A DNA stretch of 64,000 nt from Marinobacterium zhoushanense (lineage in GTDB: Bacteria; Pseudomonadota; Gammaproteobacteria; Pseudomonadales; Balneatricaceae). The stretch covers positions 222,718 to 286,717 of the forward strand of contig NZ_BMIJ01000005.1 in NCBI RefSeq assembly GCF_014641945.1, given 5' to 3'. Of this stretch, positions 5,353-37,274 are shown one piece after another (the stretch's first letter is position 1; the number at the start of each line of letters is the position of its first letter). The notes beneath the pieces were generated by a model. It was given only the letters and a program-made list of their open reading frames with translations, did no database searches and was not told the origin of the DNA. The translations under genes were made by a program, and so were the position numbers.

Positions 5353-6189
5353 TCAGTATCCCGAACCGCTCGGTTCGAGCATCATCCAGGCGGTGCCGAC
5401 CGCTACGGCGCAAATTGCCACGGCGCTGCCGGTGACCAGCACCGCACGCAGAGGCTGGTTCTCCATCTGGCGTCCAATACGGTCCACCAGCAGCAGCGGG
5501 GTCAGCAACAGCAGTGCCCAGCCATTGGCCTTGGTGTAAAACAGCATCTGTGTGCCCAGTGCCAACAGTGCGGTCAGTGCGCTCAACTGCGCGGTGGCAT
5601 TGAGCGGGAAGCGCAGGGTCGGCCAGTTCCACAGCAGGAAGCCGCCGGTCGCCGCCATCAGCGCGAAGCAGGTCTGGGCCATGGAGGCAGAGGCGCCGAT
5701 CAATGCGATTGCACCGGTACCGGCGCTGGCCAACAGCAGCAGGATGCCGCCATCCAGGCTGTCACGTCGGGCCAGGCAGCGGTGCTGCGCCAGCAGTGTC
5801 GCGGCGAACAGCATCGGCAACAGTATCCAGCCGGCAATATCGATACGGTCGAAACGTCCGTAAAGAAGCCAGCCGATGCCGGCAAGCGCCAGCACCGCCA
5901 TGGCAGTTTGCTGCACACGGGCCTTCAGATCGAGGCTGTCGATCAGCAGACCCAGCAGCAGTGCCCCCGCTACCAGATAGGGGAGTTTCTGGGACGAGGA
6001 GCGAGGGGGAAACACCGGCGCCTGGATCAGCGCCTGACAGATCAGGAAACTTACCGCAATGGCCGCCGCGGCCAGACGAGCACCGAATACCGGACCAAGC
6101 ACGAGGCGCAGCAGGCCGGTCAGGCCCAAGCTTAATAACAGTGGCAGTACCGCGCTTTGGATTAGGGGATTATCCAGTATGGATGTCAC
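5353..6189 (-). CDS. Hypothetical polytopic inner-membrane protein
   Basis: 278 aa with about 8 hydrophobic segments; no family recognised; divergent from the ompR-like gene. Confidence 0.45.
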   Translation of the reverse strand: MTSILDNPLIQSAVLPLLLSLGLTGLLRLVLGPVFGARLAAAAIAVSFLICQALIQAPVFPPRSSSQKLPYLVAGALLLGLLIDSLDLKARVQQTAMAVLALAGIGWLLYGRFDRIDIAGWILLPMLFAATLLAQHRCLARRDSLDGGILLLLASAGTGAIALIGASASMAQTCFALMAATGGFLLWNWPTLRFPLNATAQLSALTALLALGTQMLFYTKANGWALLLLTPLLLVDRIGRQMENQPLRAVLVTGSAVAICAVAVGTAWMMLEPSGSGY

Positions 6190-6381
6190 GTTCTCTCCTC
6201 ACCTGATCTGATCCTGGACCTATTAGGCCCGATAAATGTAATAAAAGTTTTTCGAAGTCGGATCATTTTGTCGCAATCTGTATCAAGCCACGCAATGGGC
6301 ATAGATTGATACAATTGACATTCGCACTCCTGCCCGGTGATCGGATAAGCTGATGCAGTAGTACTACCGGTTAGCACGATC

Positions 6382-7095
6382 ATGAACAACACACCCCATA
6401 TTCTCGTTGTCGACGACCACCAGGAGATCCGCGATCTGGTGGCCAACTACCTCGAGCAGTTCGACTTCCGCGTCACCACCGCCCGTGACGGCCAGGAGAT
6501 GAAAAAGATCCTCGAGGTCAGCGCTATCGACCTGATCGTGCTGGACCTGATGATGCCGGGCGAGGATGGTCTGAGCCTCTGCCGTCAGCTGCGCGAATCG
6601 AGCCAGATCCCGATCATCATGGTTACCGCGATGGCGGAGCAGACCGACCGCGTGGTGGGACTGGAGATGGGCGCCGACGACTACCTGACCAAGCCGTTTT
6701 TCCCCCGTGAGCTGCTGGCGCGGATCAAGGCGGTGCTGCGCCGTGCCGAGGCCTTGCCGCGTCAGCGTGATGCGCTGGAGGTGGAAAAACTCAGTTTCGA
6801 CCGCTGGGTCCTGGATGTGGCACGGCGGGAGCTGGTCGGCGAGGATGGTGTCGCAGTGCCGCTGAGCACCGCCGAGTTCAAGCTGCTGTCCACTTTTCTG
6901 GCCCACCCGCACCGGGTGTTGAGCCGGGAACAGCTGCTCGACCTGACCAGCGGGCGGCAGGCGGATGTGTTCGATCGCAGTATCGATAACCAGGTCAGCC
7001 GGTTGCGACGCAAGATCGAACGCGACAGCACCAATCCGGAGTTGATCAAAACCGTGTGGGGCGGCGGCTATATGCTCACCGTGGATGTCCAGTGA
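6382..7095 (+). CDS. OmpR-family response regulator (REC + winged-helix), close to OmpR
   Basis: Receiver motifs (VVDDH, LDLMMPGEDG, KP) and an OmpR/PhoB-type C-terminal domain; aligns with E. coli OmpR along its full length. Confidence 0.85.
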   Translation: MNNTPHILVVDDHQEIRDLVANYLEQFDFRVTTARDGQEMKKILEVSAIDLIVLDLMMPGEDGLSLCRQLRESSQIPIIMVTAMAEQTDRVVGLEMGADDYLTKPFFPRELLARIKAVLRRAEALPRQRDALEVEKLSFDRWVLDVARRELVGEDGVAVPLSTAEFKLLSTFLAHPHRVLSREQLLDLTSGRQADVFDRSIDNQVSRLRRKIERDSTNPELIKTVWGGGYMLTVDVQ

Positions 7096-8468
7096 TGCTG
7101 CGCTATCTGCGCCAGAGCCTGCCGGGACGGGTCATCGGCCTGCTGATCCTGATCCTGGGCATCGTCAACGCCACCACCGTGTATGTCTTTTTCGAGGAGC
7201 GCAGCCGGGCGGTGCGCCTCAGTCAGTTGGAGGATCTGATCTCGCGCAGCGCGGGGATGGACCGCCTGCTCGACGAAACACCGCCGGAGTTGCGTACCGA
7301 GGCGCTTGGGGCGGTCACCAGCGAGCGGTTCCGGTTCGATATCGGTGCAACCGCCACCGCCGACCCCTACAACCGCACCGGTGCCGAGCACCCGCTCTAT
7401 CAGCGTCTGGTAGCGCTGTCCGGTAACGATGCCGCGCATGTGCAGCTGTCGATCAGCCCACGCTACTACTGGTGCTACAGCTGGGTGCAGAATCTGCTCA
7501 AGCCCAACCTGCTGTTCGATCCGGGCGATGCCGCACTGCCGATCGCCAGCCTGTCGATTCAGCGTCCGGACGGCCAGTGGCTGAACGCGACGTTGCGCTC
7601 GCCTAGCAGCCTGCCGACCTGGATCGTGCCATTGCTGGTGGCGTTGGGGCTGTTTGCATTGACCGTTTGTGTCGTGGTGGTGATCGTGCGTCAGGTGTCG
7701 GCGCCACTGGGTTGTCTCAGCCGGGCTGCCGACCGTATCGGCCGCGGTGAGCTGAGCGAGGCAATTCCGGAGCAGGGCTCCGAGGATGTGGTGCGTACCA
7801 CCCGCGCCTTCAACCGCATGCAGGACCGGCTCGAACGCTTTGTTACCGACCGCACGCGGATGATGGCGGCGATCTCCCACGACCTGCGCACACCGTTGAC
7901 CATGCTGCGGTTGCACGCCGAGTTCATTCAGCCCGAGAAAAGCCGCGACAAGATTCTGTGCATTCTCAACCAGATGCAGGAGATGCTTGAGGCGACGCTG
8001 GCCTTTACCCGCGAGGAATCGGTGCAGGAGGAGCGGCGTGCCGTGGATCTGGCAGCGCTGATCGGCAGTATCTGTGAAGACCTGCGTGATCTGGGTCATC
8101 CGATCGACTATGACGAGTCCCAGCGCGTGCCCTACCTGTGCCGCTCCGGCTCCATCCGCCGCGCGCTGACCAACCTGATCGAGAACGCGTGCAAATATGG
8201 CCAGCAGGCGGAGGTCGAGCTCAGCGTCCGCGACGATCGGTTGCTGATCGCGGTGCGCGACCGTGGACCTGGCATCCCGGAGGCGGACCAGCTGCGGGTG
8301 TTCGATCCCTTTGTGCGCCTCGAGACCTCACGCAGCCGGGAGACCGGCGGTATCGGCCTGGGCCTCTCCATCGCCCGCACCATCGCCCACTCCCACGGCG
8401 GAGAGATCCGCCTGGCCAACCGCCCCGAGGGCGGCCTGGAGGTGGTACTGGAGCTGCCCACCCACTGA
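7095..8468 (+). CDS. EnvZ-like sensor histidine kinase
   Basis: ATG overlaps the regulator stop (TGATG); two TM segments, HAMP domain, H-box (AISHDLRTPLT) and N, G1, G2 boxes. Confidence 0.8.
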   Translation: MLRYLRQSLPGRVIGLLILILGIVNATTVYVFFEERSRAVRLSQLEDLISRSAGMDRLLDETPPELRTEALGAVTSERFRFDIGATATADPYNRTGAEHPLYQRLVALSGNDAAHVQLSISPRYYWCYSWVQNLLKPNLLFDPGDAALPIASLSIQRPDGQWLNATLRSPSSLPTWIVPLLVALGLFALTVCVVVVIVRQVSAPLGCLSRAADRIGRGELSEAIPEQGSEDVVRTTRAFNRMQDRLERFVTDRTRMMAAISHDLRTPLTMLRLHAEFIQPEKSRDKILCILNQMQEMLEATLAFTREESVQEERRAVDLAALIGSICEDLRDLGHPIDYDESQRVPYLCRSGSIRRALTNLIENACKYGQQAEVELSVRDDRLLIAVRDRGPGIPEADQLRVFDPFVRLETSRSRETGGIGLGLSIARTIAHSHGGEIRLANRPEGGLEVVLELPTH

Positions 8469-8989: not shown

Positions 8990-10720
8990 TCACATTAGCG
9001 GGTTGGCGAGCAGGTAGATCAGCGCGCAGGCCAGCAGGGCTGACACCCCCTGCCAGAACAACACCGGGTTGCGTTCGATCAGCGGCGGCCGGGTCTTGTT
9101 CAGGTACTCCCGGTTGGGATGGCGCAGATCGTAGATAAACTCCGATAGGTCGTCATAGCGCTTCTCCGGGCTTGGATGGGTCGCCCGTTTCAGTGCTTCG
9201 TCCACCCAGGCCGGTATCTCGCGCTCGTCATCCAGTATCGAGTCATACCTGAGTTTCTGCTGCGCCTTGGCGGTACGGCACTTGGCCACCTGGGTGCCAT
9301 AGGGGAAACGGCCGCTGAGCATCTGGTAACAGATCACGCCGAGCGAGAACTGGTCCGAGCGCTCGCTGCCGGGAAAGCCGAGAAAGTACTCCGGTGCCGT
9401 GAACAGTGCGGTACCGAGTACCTGTTCCTGGCGGCTGACCACTGTCGCTTCGGCGATGCCGGCGACCCGGGTGGCACCGAAATCGATGATCTTCACCGTG
9501 CCGTTGCGGTCGATCATGATGTTGTCCGGACGCAGGTCCTGATGCAGCATCTCCATGCGGTGGAAAGCGCGCAGACCGCGGGCGATCTGTTCGACGATCG
9601 ACCGCACGGTCTCGATATCGGGGCGCGGGTTGTCGATCAACCATTGGCGCAGGGTCTGGCCCTCAATGTACTCCATCGCCGTGTACAGGTAGTGGCGATT
9701 GCGGCCGGGCGACTCCGCCTTCAGCACGTGGGCGCTGTTGATGCGCCGCGCTATCCACTCCTCCAGCAGGAAACGCTCCAGGTAGTCCGGGTCGTCGGCC
9801 AGGTCGATGGCCGGGGTTTTCAGCGCCACCGGGTCGCCACTGGCCATATCCACAGCCAGGAACACATGGCTGCGGCTGGTGGCGTGCAGTTCGCGGACGA
9901 TCTCGTAACCATCGAACTGCATGCGCGGTTCCAGCATCGGCGGCAGCGGCAGCTGCTCGATCTGCAACTGCAGCTCGGCGTGTTCCGTCCCGGGCACCTG
10001 GTCGACACGGACGATCTGCAGGGTCAGGTTGTCACCGCTGCCCCGTTCCAGCGCGTGCTTGGCGATCTGTCGGGCGGCGTTGTCGAGGGATGTCGGGTGC
10101 TCACGCAGGGTGTTGAGCAGAAACTGGGTGTCGCTGTGTTCGTAGATGCCGTCGGTGGCGAGGATAAAGGTATCCCCGGGCTTGACCGACAGGGCCTGGT
10201 AGTCGATCTCGAGCTGATCGTCGATACCGAGCGCCCGGCTCAGGTAGCTCTCCTGCTGGGAGACCCAGAGCCGATGATCCTTGGTCAGCTGTTCCAGCGC
10301 ATGCTCGTGTACACGGTAGATGCGCGAGTCGCCGACATGAAAAATGTGCGCGGTGGCGGCTTTGATCACCATTGCGCTGAGAGTACAGACGTAGCCTTTA
10401 TCCTTATCGTAACGGTAGTCGCTGCGCCGGGTCTGGGAGTGCAGCCAGGAGTTGGTGGCCGCTATCACCCGCTCGGCGGCAGTGCGCACGGTCCAGGCTT
10501 CCGAGGTACAGAAGTAATCGTCGAGAAAGGATTTGACCGCGGCGGCGCTGGCGATCTGGCTGACGCTGCTCGAGCTGATGCCATCCGCTATCGCCAGGGC
10601 TGCGCCCTTGAGACTCAGTTGCGGCTCTTTTGGGATCAGCGCACCGTGAAAATCCTGATTCAGCTCTTTTCGGCCCTTGTCCGAATACTGGCCAACGCTG
10701 AGCTTGAGGTGACTGGTCAT
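8990..10720 (-). CDS. PP2C-type phosphatase / Ser-Thr protein kinase fusion with C-terminal TM anchor
   Basis: N-terminal PP2C motifs (ADGISS, ATDG, SGDN); kinase VALK, HQDLRPDN and DFG motifs; C-terminal hydrophobic helix; co-directional between the FNT gene and cynS. Confidence 0.8.
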   Translation of the reverse strand: MTSHLKLSVGQYSDKGRKELNQDFHGALIPKEPQLSLKGAALAIADGISSSSVSQIASAAAVKSFLDDYFCTSEAWTVRTAAERVIAATNSWLHSQTRRSDYRYDKDKGYVCTLSAMVIKAATAHIFHVGDSRIYRVHEHALEQLTKDHRLWVSQQESYLSRALGIDDQLEIDYQALSVKPGDTFILATDGIYEHSDTQFLLNTLREHPTSLDNAARQIAKHALERGSGDNLTLQIVRVDQVPGTEHAELQLQIEQLPLPPMLEPRMQFDGYEIVRELHATSRSHVFLAVDMASGDPVALKTPAIDLADDPDYLERFLLEEWIARRINSAHVLKAESPGRNRHYLYTAMEYIEGQTLRQWLIDNPRPDIETVRSIVEQIARGLRAFHRMEMLHQDLRPDNIMIDRNGTVKIIDFGATRVAGIAEATVVSRQEQVLGTALFTAPEYFLGFPGSERSDQFSLGVICYQMLSGRFPYGTQVAKCRTAKAQQKLRYDSILDDEREIPAWVDEALKRATHPSPEKRYDDLSEFIYDLRHPNREYLNKTRPPLIERNPVLFWQGVSALLACALIYLLANPLM

Positions 10721-25647: not shown

Positions 25648-27399
25648 CTATTTCAACCAGAACGCGATCAGCGTGAACAGCGCGATCATGAACCAGACCA
25701 GCGACATCAACTGCCAGAACAGCAGCGCGTTGGGGTGCTTCTGCTCCGCCTCGCGCGGAACCAGGAACTCCGGGTTGGGCTGGGTCAGGTCCTGCATCAT
25801 CCGGTCGATGCAGTCATAGCGCTGGCTGGGGTCGATGGCCAGCGCCTTCTCCAGCGCGCGGTCGAACCAGACCGGGATGATCGGGTTGTGGCGGTCGGCC
25901 GGGATATAGGCGAGCTTCTGCAGCTGCTGCGGCTTGTCGCAGTTCTCCAGCCCGTTGCCGTAGGGCAGGTGGTGGGTGAACAGCTCGTAGGTGATCGCGG
26001 CCAGTGAGAACATATCGCCGCGGATACCGGTATTCTGGCCCAGACGGAACACCGGGTCGGAGTAGTTCAGCGTGCCCAGCACCCGGTCGCGCTTGAGCGG
26101 GACGAAGATCTCGTTGATCCCGGCCACGAACACCGAGCCGAAATCGACGATTACCGCGCTGTTGTCGGGGCGGACCATGATATTGCTCGGCTTCAGGTCC
26201 TGGTGCAGCGTCTCACGCTGGTGGAACGCCTTCAGGCCATCGGCGATCTGCTTGATCAGCTCGATCGCCAGCGCCGGTTTCGGTATCGGGTTCTGTTTCA
26301 TCCAGCGGTCCAGTGATACCCCCTCCACCGGTTCCATCAGGTAGTAGAGGAAGGTCTTCGGGCGGTGGGCGATATGGATACGCACCACGTGATCGTTGCT
26401 GATGCGGCTACCGACCCACTCCTCCATGATGAAGCGTTCGATATAGGCGGCGTCATCCTCGAAGTTGCGCGACGGCGTCTTCATCACCCAGCGCTCGCCG
26501 CTCTCGATCTCCTGTACCTGGTACAGCTGGCTGCGGCTGCTGGCGTACAGCTCCTCTTCGATCAGGTAGCCGTCGATCTTCATCCCCGGTTCCAGCTCCG
26601 GCGGGAAGGGCAGCGCGGTGAGCTGTTCGGTGAGCTGGTCCAGTGAGGCGTCGTGCAGTTGATCGACGCGGACCAACTGACAGCTCAGGTTATCCCGGCT
26701 ACCGGCCCGGTAGGCGGCGTTGACCAGTGCCTCGCAACAGCTCTTCAGCTCGCCGCTGCTGCTGGCCAGGCGCAGCAGCGTTTCCGGATCCAGCGAGTCA
26801 TGCACGCCATCGGTGGTGAGCAGAAACAGGTCGCCCGGTTCGATCTCCAGCGGCCGGTAGTCGATCTCCAGGTGGGTATCCATGCCCATGGCGCGGGACA
26901 GGCAGCCCTCACGCTTGTTGAGCTGGGTGACATGATCCTCGGTCAGCTGGTCGAGACGACCGTCCCGAATCAGGTAGATACGGCTATCGCCGATATGGAA
27001 CAGGTGCGCGGTGCGCGACTTGATCACCAGCAGCGACAGCGTACAGACGTAGCCGCGGGTGCTGGAGAGGTACTCATGGCTGCGTGAGTAGAGGGTGCGG
27101 TTGATCGAGGTGAGCACCTTCTGCGCGGACTTGCCCACGGTCCAGATATCGGGGGTGTCGAAATAGTCGCTGAGAAACTCGCGCACACAGATTTCCGCCG
27201 CCTCGCCACCCGCTTCGGCGGTGCTGACGCCATCGGCGATCACCGCCACCGCGCCCTTGGTGGTCAGCAGGTTGCCCTCGGGCTGAACGAAGCCGAGGCA
27301 GTCCTCGTTTCGCTCCTTGCGCCCCTTGTCGCTGCACTGTCCGACGGACAGCTGGATCTCATCCCGTAGATACATCGCCTGCAGGTTCAGGTTGCTCAT
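25648..27399 (-). CDS. Second PP2C-phosphatase / Ser-Thr kinase fusion with C-terminal TM anchor (paralog of 8990..10720)
   Basis: PP2C motifs (ADGVS, TTDG, SRDN); kinase VVMK, HQDLKPSN, DFG; C-terminal hydrophobic helix; 80 nt downstream of narK on the same strand. Confidence 0.8.
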   Translation of the reverse strand: MSNLNLQAMYLRDEIQLSVGQCSDKGRKERNEDCLGFVQPEGNLLTTKGAVAVIADGVSTAEAGGEAAEICVREFLSDYFDTPDIWTVGKSAQKVLTSINRTLYSRSHEYLSSTRGYVCTLSLLVIKSRTAHLFHIGDSRIYLIRDGRLDQLTEDHVTQLNKREGCLSRAMGMDTHLEIDYRPLEIEPGDLFLLTTDGVHDSLDPETLLRLASSSGELKSCCEALVNAAYRAGSRDNLSCQLVRVDQLHDASLDQLTEQLTALPFPPELEPGMKIDGYLIEEELYASSRSQLYQVQEIESGERWVMKTPSRNFEDDAAYIERFIMEEWVGSRISNDHVVRIHIAHRPKTFLYYLMEPVEGVSLDRWMKQNPIPKPALAIELIKQIADGLKAFHQRETLHQDLKPSNIMVRPDNSAVIVDFGSVFVAGINEIFVPLKRDRVLGTLNYSDPVFRLGQNTGIRGDMFSLAAITYELFTHHLPYGNGLENCDKPQQLQKLAYIPADRHNPIIPVWFDRALEKALAIDPSQRYDCIDRMMQDLTQPNPEFLVPREAEQKHPNALLFWQLMSLVWFMIALFTLIAFWLK

Positions 27400-28952: not shown

Positions 28953-29116
28953 TTGACTGCTCCTGAACTGTTGGCAGCTTTAAAAAACGGGTCGAGTCAT
29001 GAGTGACACAGCGCCGATGCAAAGACTCCGTCGCCACGGCAGGATCCAGTCAGGTGTGTTCCGGGCTCATGGAGTATGCGTTGAGGCCAAAATAGGCCCT
29101 TCGGGGTAGGCGAATG

Positions 29117-29130
29117 TTGATGCAGGTCAA
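29117..29130. promoter_or_regulatory. Candidate FNR box (TTGAT-N4-GTCAA) upstream of narK
   Basis: ~170 nt upstream of the narK start codon; a degenerate copy of the GGTA-cac-TTAGTGGTA motif lies ~40 nt further upstream (29166-29188). Confidence 0.35.
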
Positions 29131-29292
29131 CTGGGATTTAGGGTGTTTGCGGAGTGAAATGGGCGTCTACCACTTATGAGGTATGGGGTTGGTGTGTGTT
29201 TAATTATTTGATTTTAAATTGGTAATAGGTTGATTGGTGATAAGGGGAACGTGGATAAGTTAGAGGTTGAGGAATAGGGGGTATCTGGTGGG

Positions 29293-29763
29293 GTGAGCGC
29301 GACGGTGGGCCAATTGAGTGCCAGAGTTGCATGCTTAAGTAGACTGGAGAAAGCGGAGGTGCTGTACCAGACTGTTGTAGATCACGCGCAAACGCGCAGT
29401 AGACGTGGTTGGATAGATAAATTCGGCGTTATGACCATGAAACCATCCTGTCCAATTTGCCATAAAAACTTCGGTTTATTCACCGGCCCGCAGTTAGAGT
29501 CTTGGTATCGCAGTCCGCTGACGCACTGCCGATGCCCTTTCTGCCAGGCTCCTCTGCAAATTGAGCGGAGCCAGCGTTTTACCTTCTTTGTCTGGCGACT
29601 GATAGCGTTTCTAAGCCTTGGAGTCATAGGTGCTAAATGGATGCTTTGGAAATACTTTTCATACGAGACTGCATTAGCCTTATTCGGACTGGTGACCGTA
29701 CTGATACTTGGATTCTTCGCTATACGCTTTTCACAGGGGATTAGGTACGTTCCACGGCTTTAG
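29293..29763 (+). CDS. Hypothetical zinc-ribbon membrane protein in a low-GC islet (true start possibly ATG 29425)
   Basis: CPICH…CRCPFC Cys pairs followed by two hydrophobic helices; AT-rich codon usage unlike its neighbours. Confidence 0.35.
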   Translation: MSATVGQLSARVACLSRLEKAEVLYQTVVDHAQTRSRRGWIDKFGVMTMKPSCPICHKNFGLFTGPQLESWYRSPLTHCRCPFCQAPLQIERSQRFTFFVWRLIAFLSLGVIGAKWMLWKYFSYETALALFGLVTVLILGFFAIRFSQGIRYVPRL

Positions 29764-30228
29764 CACCTTGATTAATGCAGTCCGCATGCATAAAGGACAG
29801 CTTGATCAAACCGGATGATATGCAGTCCAAAATCCTCCAGACCCCCGACTTAAATCCTGTATCTCATTCAGCATCTACTTGAGGCTCCCTCAAAGAAGGT
29901 TCCTAACCAATTCGTAGCCGCATCGAAAGTGGCGAAAGCATCAGACCTGTACCAGACTGTATTCTATTCCGTGCCGTAGGGATATGGGTGTGCATATATC
30001 GACAGGGATTCGGGAGTTGGTTGATGTCGCGAAGCTTTCTATCTTCTTCTGCATTTATCTATCTGCTTGTGTGTTTATGCACAGGCATCTATACCCCTAT
30101 GCTGTTGAGTCGATAGGTTTGCTAGGAGTAGGTAGCGTAAATGGGCTTGCAGTATATAAAAGTGTTATACGGCATGTAGCCTAGTAAGTACCTATAAAGC
30201 ATAAGGTATATAAAACTGTTAGGTGTAA

Positions 30229-30516
30229 ATGAGCATGGATGAAATATTCGGAATATTGACTGAATACACGCTGGCATTAAAAGCAGGGCTTGATAGCACG
30301 AGTCAAGCTAATGAGCGGCCATTAATCACGCGCCATCTAGTTGCGGCTGCTGAAATTTATGCATTGCTTCATAGCACGGGGAACTTAGAATCAGTGCAAG
30401 AGCTAGTTAAATCAGAGGTTCGCGCACATGGCTGGTCTTTTATATCGGGTCAGACCGGCGACACAATAGCCAAAAAATGGGTAGAGTTCACAAATGCAGT
30501 CGGTGTGCGGCAATAA
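30229..30516 (+). CDS. Hypothetical 95-aa helical protein (low-GC islet)
   Basis: ORF with a plausible start; no recognisable family. Confidence 0.3.
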   Translation: MSMDEIFGILTEYTLALKAGLDSTSQANERPLITRHLVAAAEIYALLHSTGNLESVQELVKSEVRAHGWSFISGQTGDTIAKKWVEFTNAVGVRQ

Positions 30517-30585
30517 AACACGTAACAAACCTCAGCAATCGCTCCCGTTGGTCGCAGGGACAGCTAAAACGCTTCGCTTATTTGT

Positions 30586-31230
30586 TTGCCCTTGTGCCGG
30601 CGCTATACGGAAATCCGAATGAAGCCACGTGATCTGCTGTTATTGAACGTAGTCGAATATGTTGAGCCTCAACTCGAAACCATTGGATTCAGGTTCTCGT
30701 CTAGGGGTATCGCATTCAAGCGTGCCTCCAGCATAGGTAATCAAGAGATTAGTTTTTCTTTGAGTAAGTGGGACAGTGAAGATGACTGTGATTTCTGGAC
30801 TATGTGGAGTGCCACTTCTTTAAAGTACAAAAAATGGTATCAAAAGGAATGGGGCCGTACCCCGGCTAATATTGCTCTCGGTGGTGATTGCGATTGGAAT
30901 TTGCCTGGGTGGCCACGAGCAGTTGCAGATCATTTTCACTTGTCAAATCACTCTAATGATGAATCAGAAATGGCGATGTTGATGGATGCGATAATTAATA
31001 TTGGGATTCCTTATCTCGATAGTATATCTGATTGGGAAGGAGCCGCTCACCACCTTGTTCAACAGTCATTACTCTTCAGTAAAGCCGCCGACTTTCTTAT
31101 GATTTCAGGAAAAATGGCTGCGGCGGAAGAAGTATTGCTGAGTGGTCTGTCGGTGTATCAGAGCGAGGGAAAAGTAGATCAACTCGGTGAGCTTGCAGAG
31201 ATTCAGATTCGGCTTAAAAGGTATTTTTGA
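30586..31230 (+). CDS. Hypothetical protein (low-GC islet), possibly immunity-protein-like
   Basis: ORF of ~200 aa (probable start 30619) with atypical composition; no confident family call. Confidence 0.35.
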   Translation: MPLCRRYTEIRMKPRDLLLLNVVEYVEPQLETIGFRFSSRGIAFKRASSIGNQEISFSLSKWDSEDDCDFWTMWSATSLKYKKWYQKEWGRTPANIALGGDCDWNLPGWPRAVADHFHLSNHSNDESEMAMLMDAIINIGIPYLDSISDWEGAAHHLVQQSLLFSKAADFLMISGKMAAAEEVLLSGLSVYQSEGKVDQLGELAEIQIRLKRYF

Positions 31231-31421
31231 GTAAAAATACGAATAGCAAGGTGCTCAAAATTGTTCGCTTAATAAATGGAGTCAGAGGGATAAATGGGGT
31301 CAGAGTATATTTTCTAACGGCCCGTCATATCGCGAGTTTTTAGGCGAAGCATTTTAGTTTTGGCATAGCGCGCCAACATTGTTCCTATAGAAATTCACCC
31401 GCCCCCGAAAGGGCAGGTGAA

Positions 31422-32579
31422 CTACTGAGCAGCCTTTACAGGTCCCAGTCTGACCAGATCATTCAGTACCGCATCAAGACCGCCATATACCGAGATCCTG
31501 TCGATACGTGAGGTGACCCGTTCCAGCGCCTCCAGCTCTTTCAGGCGCAGCAGGGTGGGGTTGTTTTCCATCATCTTGGCGGTGTTATGCAGTGATCGCA
31601 TCGCCTGAGTCTCCTCACGGCGTTTGATCAGGTTCGCTTCCGACTCTTTTTGAGCCTCCACGACCTGGTTCAGGATCTGCTTCATATCACCGGGCAGGAT
31701 GATATCTTTCACGCCAATGCTGATCATCTCGATGCCGTATTCGGTCAGCTTGCTGCGAATATCGTCGGAAAGCGCCGCGTTCAGGCTGTCCTTGTCCTCA
31801 AGCAGGGCGTCCAGCGTCTTCGTACCTACCGCTTCTCGCAGACGAAGCTGGAGTTCGCGATAGATGAAGTTGGCGTAGTCGTTCAACTTCAGTGCAACGG
31901 TTTCAGGGTCGGTCACCCTGTAGCTGCCGCTCAGGTTGATGCGCAGACTTACCCTGTCTTTGGTCAGGATCTCCTGGCCGCTCACTTCGATCGCCTGCAG
32001 GCGCAGGTCCAGTAGTTTGACGACAACGGAACGGTTGTACTTCCAGAAGCCGTAGTTGCCGGGCTGGAGCAGCTTTTCCAGCTTGCCGTTTACCGACAGT
32101 AGACCGGTGTGTTCATCCGGTACCTCGACATAGTGCATGGCCGCAACGGCACTGCGGCTTTTGCCCACTTTCATGTTCTGAGCGAGCATGCCGACAAGCT
32201 TGGTGTCTATGGCGAACGCTTCACTGATATCGACGATATCCACCCGCACCTTCTCGACCCCTTTCCAGACCGCCAGGAAAGCGCCGGGCGCCAGAGTATC
32301 GGTCAGATGACCGTCCCGGTAGAACAGGCCCACCTGAGTGTCGCTCAGCTCGAAGTGGTCGACATGGGGCTCCAGTAACTGCGCATGAGTATGGAGCAGG
32401 AATTTGGCTTTGGTGCTCTCGAACACCACATTACTGATGTCATGCGTTTCAACACGCACCTTGCCGGCCATACGCGTCATACGGTGGCGGCCCGGTTCCA
32501 GAACTTTGACCAGTCGGTTGCGGCGAAAAAGCAATGCGCGCTCGTTATCGGCAATATCAACTGTCTTCCATAGGATCAT
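31422..32579 (-). CDS. SPFH/band-7 (stomatin-like) domain protein with an extended, internally repeated N-terminal region
   Basis: C-terminal half carries the SPFH signature (…IEMISIGVKDIILPGDMKQILNQVVEAQKESEANLIKRRE…). Two similar N-terminal segments (ERALLFRRNRLVKVLEPG / HTGLLSVNGKLEKLLQPG). Confidence 0.65.
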   Translation of the reverse strand: MILWKTVDIADNERALLFRRNRLVKVLEPGRHRMTRMAGKVRVETHDISNVVFESTKAKFLLHTHAQLLEPHVDHFELSDTQVGLFYRDGHLTDTLAPGAFLAVWKGVEKVRVDIVDISEAFAIDTKLVGMLAQNMKVGKSRSAVAAMHYVEVPDEHTGLLSVNGKLEKLLQPGNYGFWKYNRSVVVKLLDLRLQAIEVSGQEILTKDRVSLRINLSGSYRVTDPETVALKLNDYANFIYRELQLRLREAVGTKTLDALLEDKDSLNAALSDDIRSKLTEYGIEMISIGVKDIILPGDMKQILNQVVEAQKESEANLIKRREETQAMRSLHNTAKMMENNPTLLRLKELEALERVTSRIDRISVYGGLDAVLNDLVRLGPVKAAQ

Positions 32580-32984
32580 TTCTCATCTCCTTTTTTGTTG
32601 TTTCACCTGTATCCGTCTTCACCTCGAACCCGAGGAAAAGTGGGCGAGGCCCACCCGAAAGGGCAGGGGCTGTCGGCTTGAACAGGGCAGGTTATACAGC
32701 CAGTGGTCCTTCGGCCTTTACCTCGACAAGGTGCGTTACCGCGTCGCTTGTTCCAGGTGTCTGCGTCCGGGCTTGGATGCACAGCATGCGATGTTGCCCA
32801 CTGGCAGCGACTGCACATTCAGCGCTCGGGTCTGCAGCGAAGCTGAGCCTCCATACCGGCAGGCGAGGACTCCGACAGCAAGCCCAAGCCATGGGCCTCT
32901 GATAGATTTCGTACAAGGTTCTTAGCCTTGCGGGGACTCGAACCCCAGGCTCTCGCCTTTCCCAATGAGTCGTTTACACGACGA

Positions 32985-33060
32985 GGTTACTTTGGCAGGA
33001 ATCGAACCTGCGCCCGGCCGATGTTTGATCGGCTGCTCTACCCGACTGAGCTACAAAGCA
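32985..33060 (-). ncRNA. tRNA-like element (tRNA-Phe-like pseudo-tRNA / tRNA mimic) downstream of rtcA
   Basis: On the minus strand: 7-bp acceptor stem, canonical D-arm (TAGCTCAGTCGGGTAGAGCA), T-arm (GCAGGTTCGATTCCTGC) and a 3' ACC tail. The anticodon loop is TCAAACA (C at position 33, AAA at 34-36), so it is not a canonical tRNA. A second isolated T-arm-like hairpin (GGGGTTCGAGTCCCC) lies at ~32925-32950. Confidence 0.5.
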
Positions 33061-33230
33061 GGTGTTCAGGACCTTCACAGATCGGTACACAAGGCGCCAA
33101 CGGCGGTTGTGCCAGGCGGGTGTACGGAACCCGCTCCGCTAATCTGAAAAAAGCACCCCCAAACGCTTTTACGATCGCCCGTACCTGACGGGTGATCTGT
33201 ATCTTTAATTGGTTTGGCATGAGTAGGTTC

Positions 33231-34241
33231 TTAAACACTTATACGCCAAACCCGTTTGCTCTCCTGTTGAGCCGTTACTTTTACGCCCGCCAGCTGTTTG
33301 ATCACCTCGATATTGGTCAGCAGGTGCTGACTGGGCGTCAGGGTTCTGAACTGACCGCCGTTGCCGCAGACCATCGGCAGCAGTAACTGATCCGCCAGAT
33401 ACTCACCGACCGGTACGCCGCTATCCAGGTAGCTTTTCAACCTCTGAATCGCACGGCCCGCGACGCGCTCCGCCGTTACCTGCTTCTCACCCACCACCTC
33501 GACCACTTCGGTCACCTGTTCGCTGGCGACCTGCAGCGACAGGATGTTGCCCGGCCCGGCCGAGTCCACCAGTCGCTGTTGCAGCTCATGGCTCGCCCAG
33601 TAGCACCTCTTCTGCACCTGTCCCAACTCGCGCTCCGTCACGTGTTTTGGGATGTGGGCCGAGGTGGCGACCGCCTGCCGGCTTAGTACCTCGCCACGTT
33701 CGGTCAGCGCCAGTGCTTGCAGCTCCTGTACAGGCTCGACGAGTATCCTCCAGGCGCCGCCGCCCGAGGGGTAAAAGCCGAACCGCTCCAGCGCCACCTC
33801 GGCCTGGTATCCCATCCGTCTGATGGCGGGCAGGAAGCAGCGCTCGATAAAGTCGTAGCTGGGGGCGAAGCCGTTATGGGTACCACCCTCCAGGTACAGC
33901 TCGCTGCTGCGCTCGGCGAAGAACAGCGGCAGCAAAACGGTCTGCAGTACCAGCGTGGTGCTACCCGCCGAGCCGATGGCAAAGCGGTACTCCCCGGCCT
34001 CAACCTTCCCTGGTTTAAATATCACCTCCGTTGAACCCGGTTTAGCGCCTGATACCTCGGCACCACATACTGTCTGTGCGGCTCGCAGGCAGGTCAGGTG
34101 CTGCCTGAGCAGCCCCGGTTTTGCCCGGCCGACGCGGATATTCTTTATCTGCACCGGCTGGCCCAGCTGCATCGCCAGCGTCAGTGAAGTGCGGAAGATC
34201 TGTCCTCCGCCTTCGCCCTGTGATCCATCGACAACAACCAT
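33231..34241 (-). CDS. rtcA: RNA 3'-terminal phosphate cyclase RtcA
   Basis: 336 aa; RtcA sequence throughout; 4-nt gap after rtcB. Confidence 0.9.
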   Translation of the reverse strand: MVVVDGSQGEGGGQIFRTSLTLAMQLGQPVQIKNIRVGRAKPGLLRQHLTCLRAAQTVCGAEVSGAKPGSTEVIFKPGKVEAGEYRFAIGSAGSTTLVLQTVLLPLFFAERSSELYLEGGTHNGFAPSYDFIERCFLPAIRRMGYQAEVALERFGFYPSGGGAWRILVEPVQELQALALTERGEVLSRQAVATSAHIPKHVTERELGQVQKRCYWASHELQQRLVDSAGPGNILSLQVASEQVTEVVEVVGEKQVTAERVAGRAIQRLKSYLDSGVPVGEYLADQLLLPMVCGNGGQFRTLTPSQHLLTNIEVIKQLAGVKVTAQQESKRVWRISV

Positions 34242-34245
34242 TGTT

Positions 34246-35472
34246 CTATCCTTTTACACACACCACCTGTTTCAGGGTGTAGACCACTTCCACCAGGTCC
34301 TTCTGTGCTTCCATCACCTTTTCGATCGGCTTGTAAGCAGAGGGTGTTTCATCGATAACACCTTCATCCTTTCGGCACTCCACGTCGGCGGTTGCCTGGC
34401 GGTGCTCTTCCAGCGATACCAGCTTCTTGGCCTGGGTTCGGGACATCACTCGCCCGGCGCCGTGGCTGCAGCTGCAGAAGCTCTCTTCGTTACCCAGGCC
34501 GCGGACGATGAACGACTTCGCGCCCATGCTTCCCGGGATTATCCCCAGCTCGCCCTCGCGTGCCCGCACCGCGCCCTTACGGGTTACCAGTACATCCTTC
34601 CCGTAGTGGTGCTCTCGGGAGATGTAGTTATGGTGGCAGTTGACCGCTTCCAGCCGTGCTTCGAACTCAAAACCCAGCGCATCCCTTACCGCCTGGATCA
34701 CGCGGGCCATCATCACTTCGCGGTTTACGCGGGCGAAGTGCTGTGCCCACTCCACCGCTTCGACATACTGGTCGAAGTGGTCGGTACCCTCCGGCAGGTA
34801 GGCCAGATCGGTATCCGGCAGATGGATATGCCAGCGTTCCATATCCTTTTTCGCCATCTCGATGAAATGGGTACCGATACGGTTACCCACACCGCGCGAT
34901 CCGCTATGCAGCATCAACCAGACACTTCCATGCTCATCCAGGCACATTTCGATAAAGTGGTTGCCTGTACCAAGCGTACCCAGGTGGTTGATGTTGTTGG
35001 TGTTCTTCAATACCGGGTGCTTATCCTTCAGCAGGTCGAACTGTGCGGACAGCGGCGCCCAGGCGCGCATCACATCATCCGGCAGATCGTACCAGGCGCC
35101 CTTATCGCGACCGCCGCGAGCACGGGCGGAGCGTCCATGCGGCACCGCACGCTCGATAGCCGAGCGCACCGCCGCCAGGTTATCCGGCAGCTGAGCGGCC
35201 GTGATGCTGGTACGCACTGCCATCATTCCGCAGCCGATATCGACACCCACCGCCGCCGGAATCACCGCGCCAAGGGTGGGGACCACACTACCGATGGTTG
35301 CGCCCTTACCGAGGTGGACATCCGGCATCGCTGCCACCCAGCGGTGGATAAACGGCATGCGCGAGATGTTTTTCAGTTGCTCCCTGGCCTCAGCTTCGAA
35401 TGGGACACCGACGGTCCAGGATTTGATCGGAACACCGCCGTCCTGCATCACTTCATATGCTTGCCGAGTCAT
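34246..35472 (-). CDS. rtcB: RNA-splicing ligase RtcB
   Basis: 408 aa RtcB/HSPC117 family; conserved metal-binding His/Cys residues. Confidence 0.9.
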   Translation of the reverse strand: MTRQAYEVMQDGGVPIKSWTVGVPFEAEAREQLKNISRMPFIHRWVAAMPDVHLGKGATIGSVVPTLGAVIPAAVGVDIGCGMMAVRTSITAAQLPDNLAAVRSAIERAVPHGRSARARGGRDKGAWYDLPDDVMRAWAPLSAQFDLLKDKHPVLKNTNNINHLGTLGTGNHFIEMCLDEHGSVWLMLHSGSRGVGNRIGTHFIEMAKKDMERWHIHLPDTDLAYLPEGTDHFDQYVEAVEWAQHFARVNREVMMARVIQAVRDALGFEFEARLEAVNCHHNYISREHHYGKDVLVTRKGAVRAREGELGIIPGSMGAKSFIVRGLGNEESFCSCSHGAGRVMSRTQAKKLVSLEEHRQATADVECRKDEGVIDETPSAYKPIEKVMEAQKDLVEVVYTLKQVVCVKG

Positions 35473-35520: not shown

Positions 35521-35536
35521 AGCGAGGAAGGTGCCA
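35521..35536 (-). promoter_or_regulatory. Candidate sigma54 (-24/-12) promoter for rtcBA
   Basis: Minus-strand TGGCAC-cttcc-TCGCT with GG…GC spacing matching TGGCAC-N5-TTGCW; ~50 nt upstream of the rtcB ATG, in the rtcR-rtcB divergent region. Confidence 0.45.
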
Positions 35537-35684: not shown

Positions 35685-37274
35685 ATGAAGACAGTGGCGA
35701 TCAGCATTCTGGGCACGACCATGGACCGGCGCGGCAAGGGCGACAAGCGCTGGGACAAGTGGCGTCCGACCGTTTCCATGTTCCAGCACGACGATTTGCT
35801 GATCGATCGCCTAGAGCTGCTGTTCGACAACCACTCCCAGGGGCTGGCGAACCAGGTGACCGAGGATATCGCGCGGGTCTCGCCGGAGACTGAGGTGGTC
35901 CACCACCGGGTCAATTTCCAGGATCCCTGGGACTTCGAAACGGTGTATGGCGAGCTGCTCGACTTTGCCCGCGGCTATCCGTTCAAGCGCAGCCGCGAGC
36001 AGTACCTCATCCACATCACCACCGGCACCCACGTTGCCCAGATCTGCCTTTATTTACTGACCGAAGCCGGCTATCTGCCTGGCCGACTGCTACAGACCTC
36101 GCCGGCCCGCAGCGATAGCAACCTGCCGGGCGAATACCAGATCATCGATCTCGACCTATCCAAGTACGACCAGATCGCCTCGCGCTTCCAGAAGGAGCAT
36201 CAGGAGGGCACCACCTATCTGAAGGGCGGCATCGAGACCAACAATCCGGCGTTCAACCGCATGATCGAGCAGCTGGAGAAGGTCTCGATCCGTTCCAGCG
36301 AACCGATCCTGATCACCGGTCCCACCGGTGCCGGCAAGTCGCAGCTGGCGCAGCGGGTGTACGAGCTGCGCAGGCAGCGTGGCAAGCTGGAGGGGCGTCT
36401 GGTCGCCGTGAACTGCGCCACGTTGAGAGGTGAAAATGCCATGTCGGCGCTGTTCGGGCATAAGAAGGGCGCCTTTACCGGCGCCACCTCCGACCGTCCG
36501 GGCCTGTTGATGGAGGCCAACAAAGGACTGCTGTTCCTTGATGAGATCGGCGAGTTGGGTCTGGATGAGCAGGCGATGCTGCTCAGGGCGATCGAGGACA
36601 AGTGCTTTATGCCCTTCGGTTCCGACAAGGAGGTCAGCAGCGACTTCCAGCTGATTGCCGGCACCAACCGCGACCTCGCCCAGCTCGCCCGCGAAGGCGG
36701 CTTTCGTGCCGACCTGATGGCGCGCATCGACCTTTGGACCTATCAGTTGCCCTCGCTGAAGGATCGGATCGAAGACCTGGAGCCCAATATCGACTACGAG
36801 CTGGAGGTGTTCTCCGGCCGTTCCGGATATCTGGTGAACTTCAACAAGGCCGCCCGCGAGCGCTACCTGGCCTTCAGCCGCTCCGCCGACGCCACCTGGT
36901 CGGCCAACTTTCGTGATCTCAATGCCAGCATCACCCGCATGGGTACCCTCGCTGATGGCGGGCGTATCACTGTCGAGGTGGTAGATGAGGAGGTCGGACG
37001 CCTAAAGCGTAAATGGAATGCAACGTCGTCCACCGAGCAGAACGCGGGCGAACTGATCGAGCAGGTGTTGGGGCAGGGCAGTGCGGACAGTATCGATTAC
37101 TATGACCAACTCAAGCTTGCGGCACTGATAGAGGTGTGTCGCCACTCCAGCTCCATGGCGGAGGCAGGTAGGAAACTGTTCAACGTGAGCCGGGAAAGCA
37201 AGAGATCCAGCAACGACTCGCACCGGGTCAAGCAACTGCTGGCGAAGTATGGGATACGGTTCGAGGAGCTTTAG
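35685..37274 (+). CDS. rtcR: RtcR, sigma54-dependent transcriptional activator of rtcBA (N-terminal CARF-like domain, AAA+ domain, C-terminal HTH)
   Basis: AAA+ motifs (GPTGAGKS Walker A, GAFTGA sigma54-contact motif, FLDEIGEL Walker B); divergent to rtcB. Confidence 0.9.
   Translation: MKTVAISILGTTMDRRGKGDKRWDKWRPTVSMFQHDDLLIDRLELLFDNHSQGLANQVTEDIARVSPETEVVHHRVNFQDPWDFETVYGELLDFARGYPFKRSREQYLIHITTGTHVAQICLYLLTEAGYLPGRLLQTSPARSDSNLPGEYQIIDLDLSKYDQIASRFQKEHQEGTTYLKGGIETNNPAFNRMIEQLEKVSIRSSEPILITGPTGAGKSQLAQRVYELRRQRGKLEGRLVAVNCATLRGENAMSALFGHKKGAFTGATSDRPGLLMEANKGLLFLDEIGELGLDEQAMLLRAIEDKCFMPFGSDKEVSSDFQLIAGTNRDLAQLAREGGFRADLMARIDLWTYQLPSLKDRIEDLEPNIDYELEVFSGRSGYLVNFNKAARERYLAFSRSADATWSANFRDLNASITRMGTLADGGRITVEVVDEEVGRLKRKWNATSSTEQNAGELIEQVLGQGSADSIDYYDQLKLAALIEVCRHSSSMAEAGRKLFNVSRESKRSSNDSHRVKQLLAKYGIRFEEL

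Follow-up and report, generated by a model that had tools for sequence, protein, structure and literature searches.

The question raised by this locus is what a tRNA-shaped sequence does on the minus strand between the RNA repair gene rtcA and a gene for an SPFH/Band-7 protein of Marinobacterium zhoushanense. The locus lies within a 64,000-nucleotide stretch of contig NZ_BMIJ01000005.1 (positions 222,718 to 286,717), which was analyzed as a whole and is called here the window; all coordinates are window positions. An initial annotation had offered two explanations, either a tRNA-mimic noncoding RNA of the kind associated with rtcB loci, comparable to the Y-RNA-like YrlA, or what is left of a degenerate tRNA gene that had been an integration site, and had overlooked the SPFH gene (31422-32579), which is the partner of the RNA. 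The answer reached here, with good confidence, is that the tRNA-shaped sequence forms the tRNA-like part of an RNA of the b7a-tRNA class, associated with Band-7/SPFH, which would act with an SPFH scaffold and is encoded in an operon of the RtcR/sigma54 type with the arrangement rtcR / rtcB-rtcA-RNA-SPFH. The b7a-tRNA is a predicted noncoding RNA, described as closely resembling genuine tRNA and as lying beside a Band-7 gene that neighbours RtcB (Burroughs and Aravind, NAR 2016, as cited in 10.1101/312249), and the citing paper reports the proposal that it is functionally analogous to YrlA with Ro60 (10.1101/312249). A search of further literature on b7a-tRNA found no added data, and Rfam contains no b7a-tRNA family. 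In the window, rtcR, rtcB and rtcA are found immediately upstream of the RNA, which is the neighbourhood described for that class.

Concerning the element itself, ARAGORN called a single tRNA in the whole window, at 32985-33060 of the minus strand, under the label 'tRNA-Phe (aaa)', and the Rfam tRNA model, whose gathering score is 29, matched the cloverleaf with 56.3 bits (window E = 1.9e-9). Both results confirm the 76-nt tRNA fold noticed initially, and its spacing of about 170 nt from the rtcA stop is also correct, as the gap between the rtcA reading frame, which ends stop included at 33231, and the cloverleaf is 170 nt. The individual parts were read in the sequence as they had been described: an acceptor stem UGCUUUG/CAAAGUA of 7 bp with one G.U pair, a D arm UAGCUCAGUCGGGUAGAGCA, a 5-bp anticodon stem GCCGA/UCGGC closing the non-canonical loop UCAAACA (C33, AAA, C37), a T arm GCAGG-UUCGAUU-CCUGC and a 3′ end A-CC-U. 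All the canonical elbow and core residues are present (U8, A14, G15-C48, G18G19, U54-A58 and C56), which is the full set of tertiary residues of the L shape, with a purine at 15 and a pyrimidine at 48. The aberrant part of the cloverleaf is the anticodon loop only, by its C33 and C37. The D arm had been taken as that of tRNA-Phe, but it is not specific, since in a BLAST search with the intergenic DNA the cloverleaf body matched generic phage tRNA-Lys and tRNA-Ile genes; the same DNA gave no match against E. coli genomes and plasmids. Other than tRNA, the Rfam families gave in 32300-33400 one chance match (E = 0.22, with a cut-off of E ≤ 10). So, of the covariance models proposed initially for this check, the tRNA model matched and the Y-RNA type did not. 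No transfer-messenger RNA (tmRNA) was found by ARAGORN in the window, and a tag reading frame is absent.

The neighbourhood of the element was followed in related loci. No record of a protein identical to the window RtcA was found. A scan of genome contigs based on RtcA yielded one locus, L001, from a Kangiellaceae metagenome-assembled genome, with the order rtcB-rtcA-tRNA-like element-SPFH-RlaP and with RtcA and SPFH proteins 52% and 53% identical to those of the window; RlaP, a nucleotidyltransferase encoded there after the SPFH gene, is missing from the window. A metagenome scan with an SPFH alignment yielded 80 loci, whose SPFH proteins are 41–76% identical to that of the window. Sixty-two loci were informative, as 600 nt or more of sequence preceded the SPFH gene, and in 58 of them ARAGORN called a tRNA-like element on the same strand not more than 800 nt upstream of that gene; a divergent one was recovered by profile search in two more loci. 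Across loci, the RNA lies 230–500 nt upstream of the SPFH open reading frame (ORF). When the genes within 3.5 kb were considered in 82 sources (the 80 loci, the window and L001), RtcB was present in 34, RtcR in 14, RtcA in 9 and RlaP in 7, in variable order. Where rtcR is divergent (L025, L031, L038, L042, L043 and L069), a TGGCAC-N5-YTGN promoter stands directly 5′ of the RNA, which is followed by SPFH and RtcB and, in some, by RtcA and RlaP. Since the order of the genes varies and the promoter may precede the RNA, it can be said that the conserved feature is the co-expression of the RNA, the SPFH protein and the repair enzymes. Searching the genome contigs with the degenerate DNA pattern GAGCA-N5-TCAAACA-N13-GGTTCGANTCC gave no match, which is explained by the variability of the anticodon loop. 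Scanning IMG/VR for SPFH and searching phage genomes with tblastn were also negative.

This constancy of position bears directly on the second of the initial explanations, according to which a tRNA gene once served as the integration site of a neighbouring low-GC islet and then degenerated. The islet is real: at about 29000-31400 the GC content falls to 0.43–0.49, compared to about 0.6 in the flanks, and the stretch contains four small plus-strand ORFs without Pfam family, one of which (30586-31230, 214 aa) is almost an ORFan, with one distant relative in 5.8 billion proteins. In L001, RlaP occupies the place after SPFH that corresponds to this islet. However, the SPFH gene, conserved partner of the element, intervenes between the element and the islet; none of the four ORFs gave a significant Pfam or NCBIfam match, integrase families included; no second copy of the tRNA 3′ end was found in the window, allowing up to 3 mismatches; and the direct repeats of the region, adduced initially as flanking repeats, are short and at chance level. 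Besides, a remnant is not expected to keep its position relative to SPFH in 58/62 informative loci at 41–76% protein identity, nor to preserve compensatory changes in its stems across distant relatives. An origin as an integration remnant is thus extremely improbable.

The comparison with homologous positions, from which an intact tRNA-Phe gene might have emerged, gave instead tRNA-like elements with scattered anticodons. The loops of 51 first modules (the module nearest the 5′ end in each member) were surveyed. The anticodon loop has 6 nt in 14 of them; among the 37 loops of 7 nt, U33 occurs in 34 and A37 in 27. The 'anticodons' of the 51 members are dispersed, with CAU in 12, GAU in 7 and many others. 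Even with respect to its closest relative, L002 (loop CUAAUAA), the window loop differs in 4 of 7 positions while the stems are kept. As the stems covary and the loop varies, down to 6 nt in 14/51, the element is interpreted as a tRNA mimic and not as a decoder. The opposite interpretation, a functional tRNA-Phe gene with anticodon AAA, can appeal to the ARAGORN label, to the high score of the Rfam tRNA model, to the intact acceptor stem and to the 3′-terminal ACC. Nevertheless, the window loop lacks two of the three marks of a decoding loop (7 nt, U33, purine 37), with C33 in place of the near-universal U33 and C37 in place of a purine; CCA is not encoded; and at orthologous positions the 'anticodon' shifts freely and the loop is often of 6 nt. 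Use of an unmodified A34 for Phe is not known in bacteria. Therefore, we consider it highly improbable that the element decodes, and the initial judgement that it is not a functional standard tRNA holds with the additional support of C37 and of a loop unconstrained across 51 members. For annotation, this means that calls such as 'tRNA-Phe(AAA)' or 'tRNA-Ile(AAU)' beside slipin genes do not correspond to decoding tRNAs.

The cloverleaf is one part of a larger structure. As a whole, the RNA spans about 250 nt and is a conserved fold of several domains: the cloverleaf is preceded by a 5′ hairpin and a UA-bulged helix, and it is followed by a small hairpin, a hairpin of the GNRA type and then a second T-arm. 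The architecture common to the window and 17 loci is, from the 5′ end, UUAGCGG with hairpin H1, helix P2 with a variable inner hairpin, a linker of about 20 nt, the cloverleaf, hairpin H3, UGGNAAAGG as a single-stranded segment, a 3-bp GNRA hairpin and T-arm 2 (window coordinates in Table 1). In the alignment of these 18 loci, which was not fitted to any structure, the 38 tested pairs were 95.3% paired and 23 pairs changed on both sides; the covariation score was 0.508, versus 0.150 for shuffles and at most 0.14 with slid partners. The acceptor, anticodon and T stems all covary, while the D stem is invariant and so uninformative on this point. In P2, the outer pair 44-88 is formed in every sequence, by U-A in 10 and by G-C in 8. 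A contiguous P2 helix was rejected in favour of the bulged model because pair 44-86 is unpaired in 8/18 sequences whereas 44-88 pairs in 18/18.

The model of the 5′ domain, R2, had in the window a sole match (33143-33081, 62.3 bits, E = 2.3e-13). The model matched 52 sources, exactly once in each; the match was in every case on the strand of SPFH and preceded the tRNA-like element, usually lying 20–24 nt before the first module. Between this domain and SPFH, ARAGORN called a single module in 34 loci, two modules in 15 loci and three in 2. The model of the 3′ domain, R1, matched the window at 32966-32928 (54.4 bits, E = 6e-15) and reached E ≤ 0.01 in 33 matches, among which 27 had an E of about 4e-5 or less. 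The second T-arm-like hairpin reported initially thus exists, but it is placed about 39 nt past the cloverleaf rather than about 55 nt, and it is not isolated, as it forms part of this conserved domain. The counterparts of H3 elsewhere differ in sequence (ACAGC/GCUGU, CCAGC/GCUGG, CCAAC/GUUGG, ACAAC/GUUGU), and in L005 a second full cloverleaf occupies its place. Variants of the GNRA hairpin supporting covariation are GGU-GCAA-ACC, CCC-GAAA-GGG and GAC-GAAA-GUC. The tail AAAUCUAUCAGAGGCCCAUGG and the hairpin preceding it are kept only within the subclade of the window and its closest relatives L002-L004.

With respect to function, the most likely role of the RNA would be that of a partner of an SPFH scaffold, by analogy with Y RNA and Ro60. 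The sigma54 activator RtcR responds to fragments of tRNA with 2′,3′-cyclic phosphate ends (PMC7790460). In the mechanism proposed, RtcR would sense cleaved tRNAs, so that RtcB, RtcA, the SPFH protein and the RNA would be made together; the RNA would act by its shape rather than as a decoder; its attachment to the SPFH oligomer would be through the family-specific 5′ domain; RtcB or another tRNA-binding factor would meet a tRNA surface on the tRNA-like module; and the resulting SPFH-RNA particle would support tRNA repair as scaffold or cofactor, in the way that Y RNA does for Ro60. Two properties of the SPFH protein speak for the scaffold idea. Its closest entries in the PDB are stomatins, QmcA and HflK, deposited as homo- or hetero-oligomers of 16 to 26 chains, and no membrane segment is predicted in it (maximum hydropathy 1.23). 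The protein is 100% identical to M. zhoushanense GCM10011352_26650 and has 6428 relatives at E ≤ 1e-20. In its N-terminal extension of about 145 aa, the first SPFH beta-strand motif seems to be repeated (residues 1–60 versus 142–185), as judged from weak internal BLAST matches in the window protein versus L001.

The same loop survey admits another interpretation, in which the tRNA-like module is not a scaffold cofactor but a decoy or sensor, either as target or competitive inhibitor of anticodon nucleases, which it would soak up, or because its cyclic-phosphate cleavage products feed back on the CARF domain of RtcR. It would agree with the canonical 7-nt loops of many members (U33 in 34/37, A37 in 27/37, anticodons such as CAU and GAU) and with the origin of the RNA in an RtcR-controlled unit. 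There are also proposals of this kind, as it is suggested that YrlA's tRNA-like domain could competitively inhibit an anticodon nuclease (Hughes et al., PMC7790460) and a sponge role has been proposed for the tRNAs of arrays (PMC8421152). It accommodates poorly the 6-nt loops of 14/51 members, the window loop (C33, AAA, C37), which is unlike any cellular tRNA target, and the fact that universal conservation resides in the elbow and the 5′ domain, not in the anticodon loop. A decoy or sensor is thus rather unlikely, and it would be compatible with binding to SPFH.

The location of the RNA inside an apparent polycistronic unit and immediately 5′ of the SPFH ORF, at the 230–500 nt already mentioned, could also suggest a role in cis: the cloverleaf would recruit RNase P or RNase Z to part rtcBA from the SPFH mRNA, or a leader would control SPFH translation, with no trans-acting RNA. 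In bacteria, tRNAs cotranscribed with protein genes are processed by RNase P, so such punctuation has a well-established basis. Against it, in loci such as L031 and L042 there is no upstream mRNA to release, because the RNA comes first after the promoter, and punctuation could do without a conserved 5′ domain, without a GNRA hairpin and an extra T-arm, and without 2–3 tandem cloverleaves. So, we give the cis role an outside chance, and the scaffold-partner RNA of the b7a-tRNA class remains the preferred interpretation.

Several points weigh against that interpretation. The b7a-tRNA was experimentally unvalidated as of 2018, according to the paper that cites its prediction (10.1101/312249), and for the RNA of the window expression, processing and binding are predicted. 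Canonical loops such as CUCAUAA and CUGAUAA occur in many members, and some of these could be charged or be nuclease targets. The pairing values of the R2 alignment (96.1% of cells paired, score 0.583 versus 0.228) and of the R1 alignment (98.2% of cells paired) are inflated, as these alignments were fitted to the models. The minimum-free-energy fold of the window sequence alone is unexceptional (z = −1.8) and does not contain the cloverleaf. The cotranscription of the RNA with rtcBA and SPFH is deduced solely from simple consensus scans, which found neither a sigma70-like promoter nor a convincing terminator on the minus strand from rtcA to SPFH. Finally, the 5′ domain is proposed to bind SPFH purely by analogy.

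Table 1. Features of the rtc-SPFH region of the window, in order of decreasing position for the minus strand.
Feature	Position	Strand	Details
rtcR, sigma54 activator with RtcR/CARF-type N-terminal domain	35685..37274	+	Pfam RtcR 7.3e-85, Sigma54_activat 1.2e-46
sigma54-type promoter TGGCACCTTCCTCGCT	35521..35536	-	about 50 nt 5′ of the rtcB ATG
rtcB, RNA 3′-phosphate ligase	34246..35472	-	Pfam RtcB 5.5e-133; rtcR divergent from rtcB
rtcA, RNA 3′-terminal phosphate cyclase	33231..34241	-	Pfam RTC 6.9e-76 and RTC_insert
5′ domain of the RNA	33081..33143	-	UUAGCGG, hairpin H1 and helix P2; model R2
Hairpin H1	33137-33114	-	loop UUCCGUACA
Helix P2	33113-33084	-	2-nt UA bulge on the 3′ strand; small inner hairpin CGCC-GUU-GGCG
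tRNA-like cloverleaf (b7a-tRNA module)	32985..33060	-	76 nt; ARAGORN, Rfam tRNA, covarying stems
Hairpin H3, GUCGU-GUAA-ACGAC	32969..32982	-	read from the sequence
3′ domain	32928..32966	-	single-stranded UUGGGAAAGG, GNRA hairpin, T-arm-like hairpin 2; model R1
GNRA hairpin GGC-GAGA-GCC	32957-32948	-	part of the 3′ domain
T-arm-like hairpin 2, GGGG-UUCGAGU-CCCC	32946-32932	-	about 39 nt past the cloverleaf
Hairpin CAAGG-CUAAGAA-CCUUG (32930-32914), then tail AAAUCUAUCAGAGGCCCAUGG	32889..32930	-	alignment with L002-L004
Weak terminator-like hairpin	32642..32656	-	about 60 nt before the SPFH start; terminator scan
SPFH/Band-7 (stomatin-like 'slipin') protein	31422..32579	-	385 aa; Pfam Band_7 9.6e-33

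Concerning the operon, the promoter-like sequence TGGCACCTTCCTCGCT has one mismatch to TGGCAC-N5-TTGCW; matches to this pattern are no more frequent in the window than by chance, and what speaks for the promoter is where it lies. The gap between rtcA and SPFH on the minus strand is 650 nt, with SPFH 405 nt downstream of the cloverleaf. In this region the count of terminators does not exceed that of shuffles, and the role of the hairpin at 32642..32656 is uncertain. The weak hairpin with a T-run at 33146-33170, proposed initially as the terminator of rtcA, exists and was not called as a terminator by the scan. Directly after the rtcA stop, at 33173-33197, there is a perfect 10-bp hairpin, GAUCACCCGU-CAGGU-ACGGGCGAUC, which is probably not a terminator on the rtc strand since no U-run follows it; it may stabilise the mRNA. 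About 30 nt 5′ of UUAGCGG (33150-33165), the motif A(G)AGUUU(G/A) is common to the window and its four closest relatives L001-L004 and could be a processing site or a promoter element. The CTGGCAC of the 5′ domain was considered as a sigma54 promoter and discarded because relatives, with CUGUGCAC and CUGCGCAC, do not keep its GG, because the spacing does not fit, and because it shows the covariation of an RNA helix. As had been stated initially, no Ro/Rsr gene was found: TROVE/Rsr was absent from the operon genes and from the long ORFs of the window that were run against Pfam (12 in one count, 10 besides the operon genes in another), which are part of the window ORFs. Elsewhere in the window, at 25648-27399 and 8990-10720 (both on the minus strand), there are genes for two paralogs of about 580 aa, each with a PP2C phosphatase domain at the N-terminus and a Ser/Thr kinase domain at the C-terminus.

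Another observation on the RNA concerns the conserved motif UGG(U/A)A(A/G)AGG, single-stranded before the GNRA hairpin (window 32958-32966). A CCA located 5′ of the cloverleaf (window 33061-33066; columns 105–121 and 262–275 of alignment A4) could pair in many loci with its UGG, as in L004 (CUACCA/UGGUAG), L012 (CCAUG/CAUGG) and L024 (UACCA/UGGUA). In the window and L002 just CC/GG is available for this tentative contact, which recalls the NCCA/UGGN contact of T-box leaders. A long-range CCA/UGG helix enclosing the cloverleaf is not claimed, because it is missing in the window and L002; it is also inconsistent across loci. A conserved terminal stem, of the Y-RNA type that binds Ro, was looked for with RNAalifold and none was found.

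Some related loci contain more tRNA genes. Head-to-tail arrays of 5–21 ordinary-looking tRNA genes occur not more than 3.5 kb upstream of the unit in 27/81 related SPFH loci, for instance in L005 (945-2780), L072, L057 and L024. Long tRNA arrays linked to rtcB are known in cyanobacteria (PMC8421152), and a term search of that paper gave no mention of Band-7 or SPFH. E. coli presents a different case. In L082 (CP061233.1 605811-618932), at about 5689-7928, a 'slipin family protein' 43% identical to the window SPFH is encoded together with a nucleotidyltransferase gene, both between the DUF3811 gene and lysC, and at least 80% of the stretch formed by the leader and the slipin gene is present in 1629/5426 complete genomes. 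The leader shows a sigma54-like CTGGCACGCTTCTCGCAAT and a single T-arm-like hairpin, GGGUUCGAUUCCC; the cloverleaf is absent from this locus, where the R1 and R2 models have no significant match.

It is worth considering what these results could mean. Bacterial RtcB repair operons, induced by cleaved tRNAs, include accessory parts such as Ro60 with Y RNA and Band-7 with its tRNA-like RNA. SPFH proteins are normally regarded as membrane scaffolds, and a mimic that keeps the elbow while its loop drifts would offer, together with the bulged helix, experimental handles on SPFH proteins as RNA-containing particles. What may be new is the detail of the extended architecture and of the universal 5′ domain, with modest novelty given that the class had been predicted before. 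A bolder view is put forward as tentative and could well be wrong. It would see here an uncatalogued RNA family of about 250–300 nt, absent from Rfam, whose universal mark would be a 5′ domain (H1 and the UA-bulge helix); tRNA-like modules, from one to three, would come next, often with a GNRA hairpin and an orphan T-arm after them. In tRNA repair under RtcR control, this family would be the dedicated partner of a cytosolic cage of SPFH protein, forming a second, independent ribonucleoprotein of the Ro/Y-RNA kind, joined in many genomes to long arrays of spare tRNAs.

The element can finally be compared with known systems. With canonical tRNA genes, including those of L-arrays (PMC8421152), it shares the cloverleaf, the elbow residues and the T-loop, and it differs by its unconstrained anticodon loop, by the family-specific structured domains that flank it, and by its fixed place before SPFH, with or without an array. 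Like tmRNA, the tRNA-like structure of turnip yellow mosaic virus and mascRNA, it is a case of tRNA shape serving something other than decoding; unlike tmRNA it has no tag reading frame, and unlike viral tRNA-like structures it is not at the 3′ end of a genome. YrlA, found in rsr-yrlBA-rtcBA operons with Rsr/Ro60 and proposed as a scaffold or cofactor, is closer, being also a modular RNA of an RtcR/RtcB operon, in which a tRNA-like fold with the elbow of D-loop and T-loop is joined to a separate helix presumed to bind protein. However, the window operon has no Rsr/TROVE gene and no Y-RNA model match, its tRNA-like part is complete and unpermuted, with an anticodon arm, and the partner is an SPFH protein instead of the Ro60 ring. 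So, of the first initial explanation, the tRNA-mimic RNA of rtcB loci stands, while the Y-RNA/YrlA comparison does not. The closest likeness is to b7a-tRNA. As far as the description in the citing paper goes, no difference in defining features was found, and all three of them, a near-canonical cloverleaf, an adjacent Band-7/SPFH gene and an RtcB neighbourhood, are present in the window and in its relatives; for this reason the RNA is filed as a member of that predicted class.

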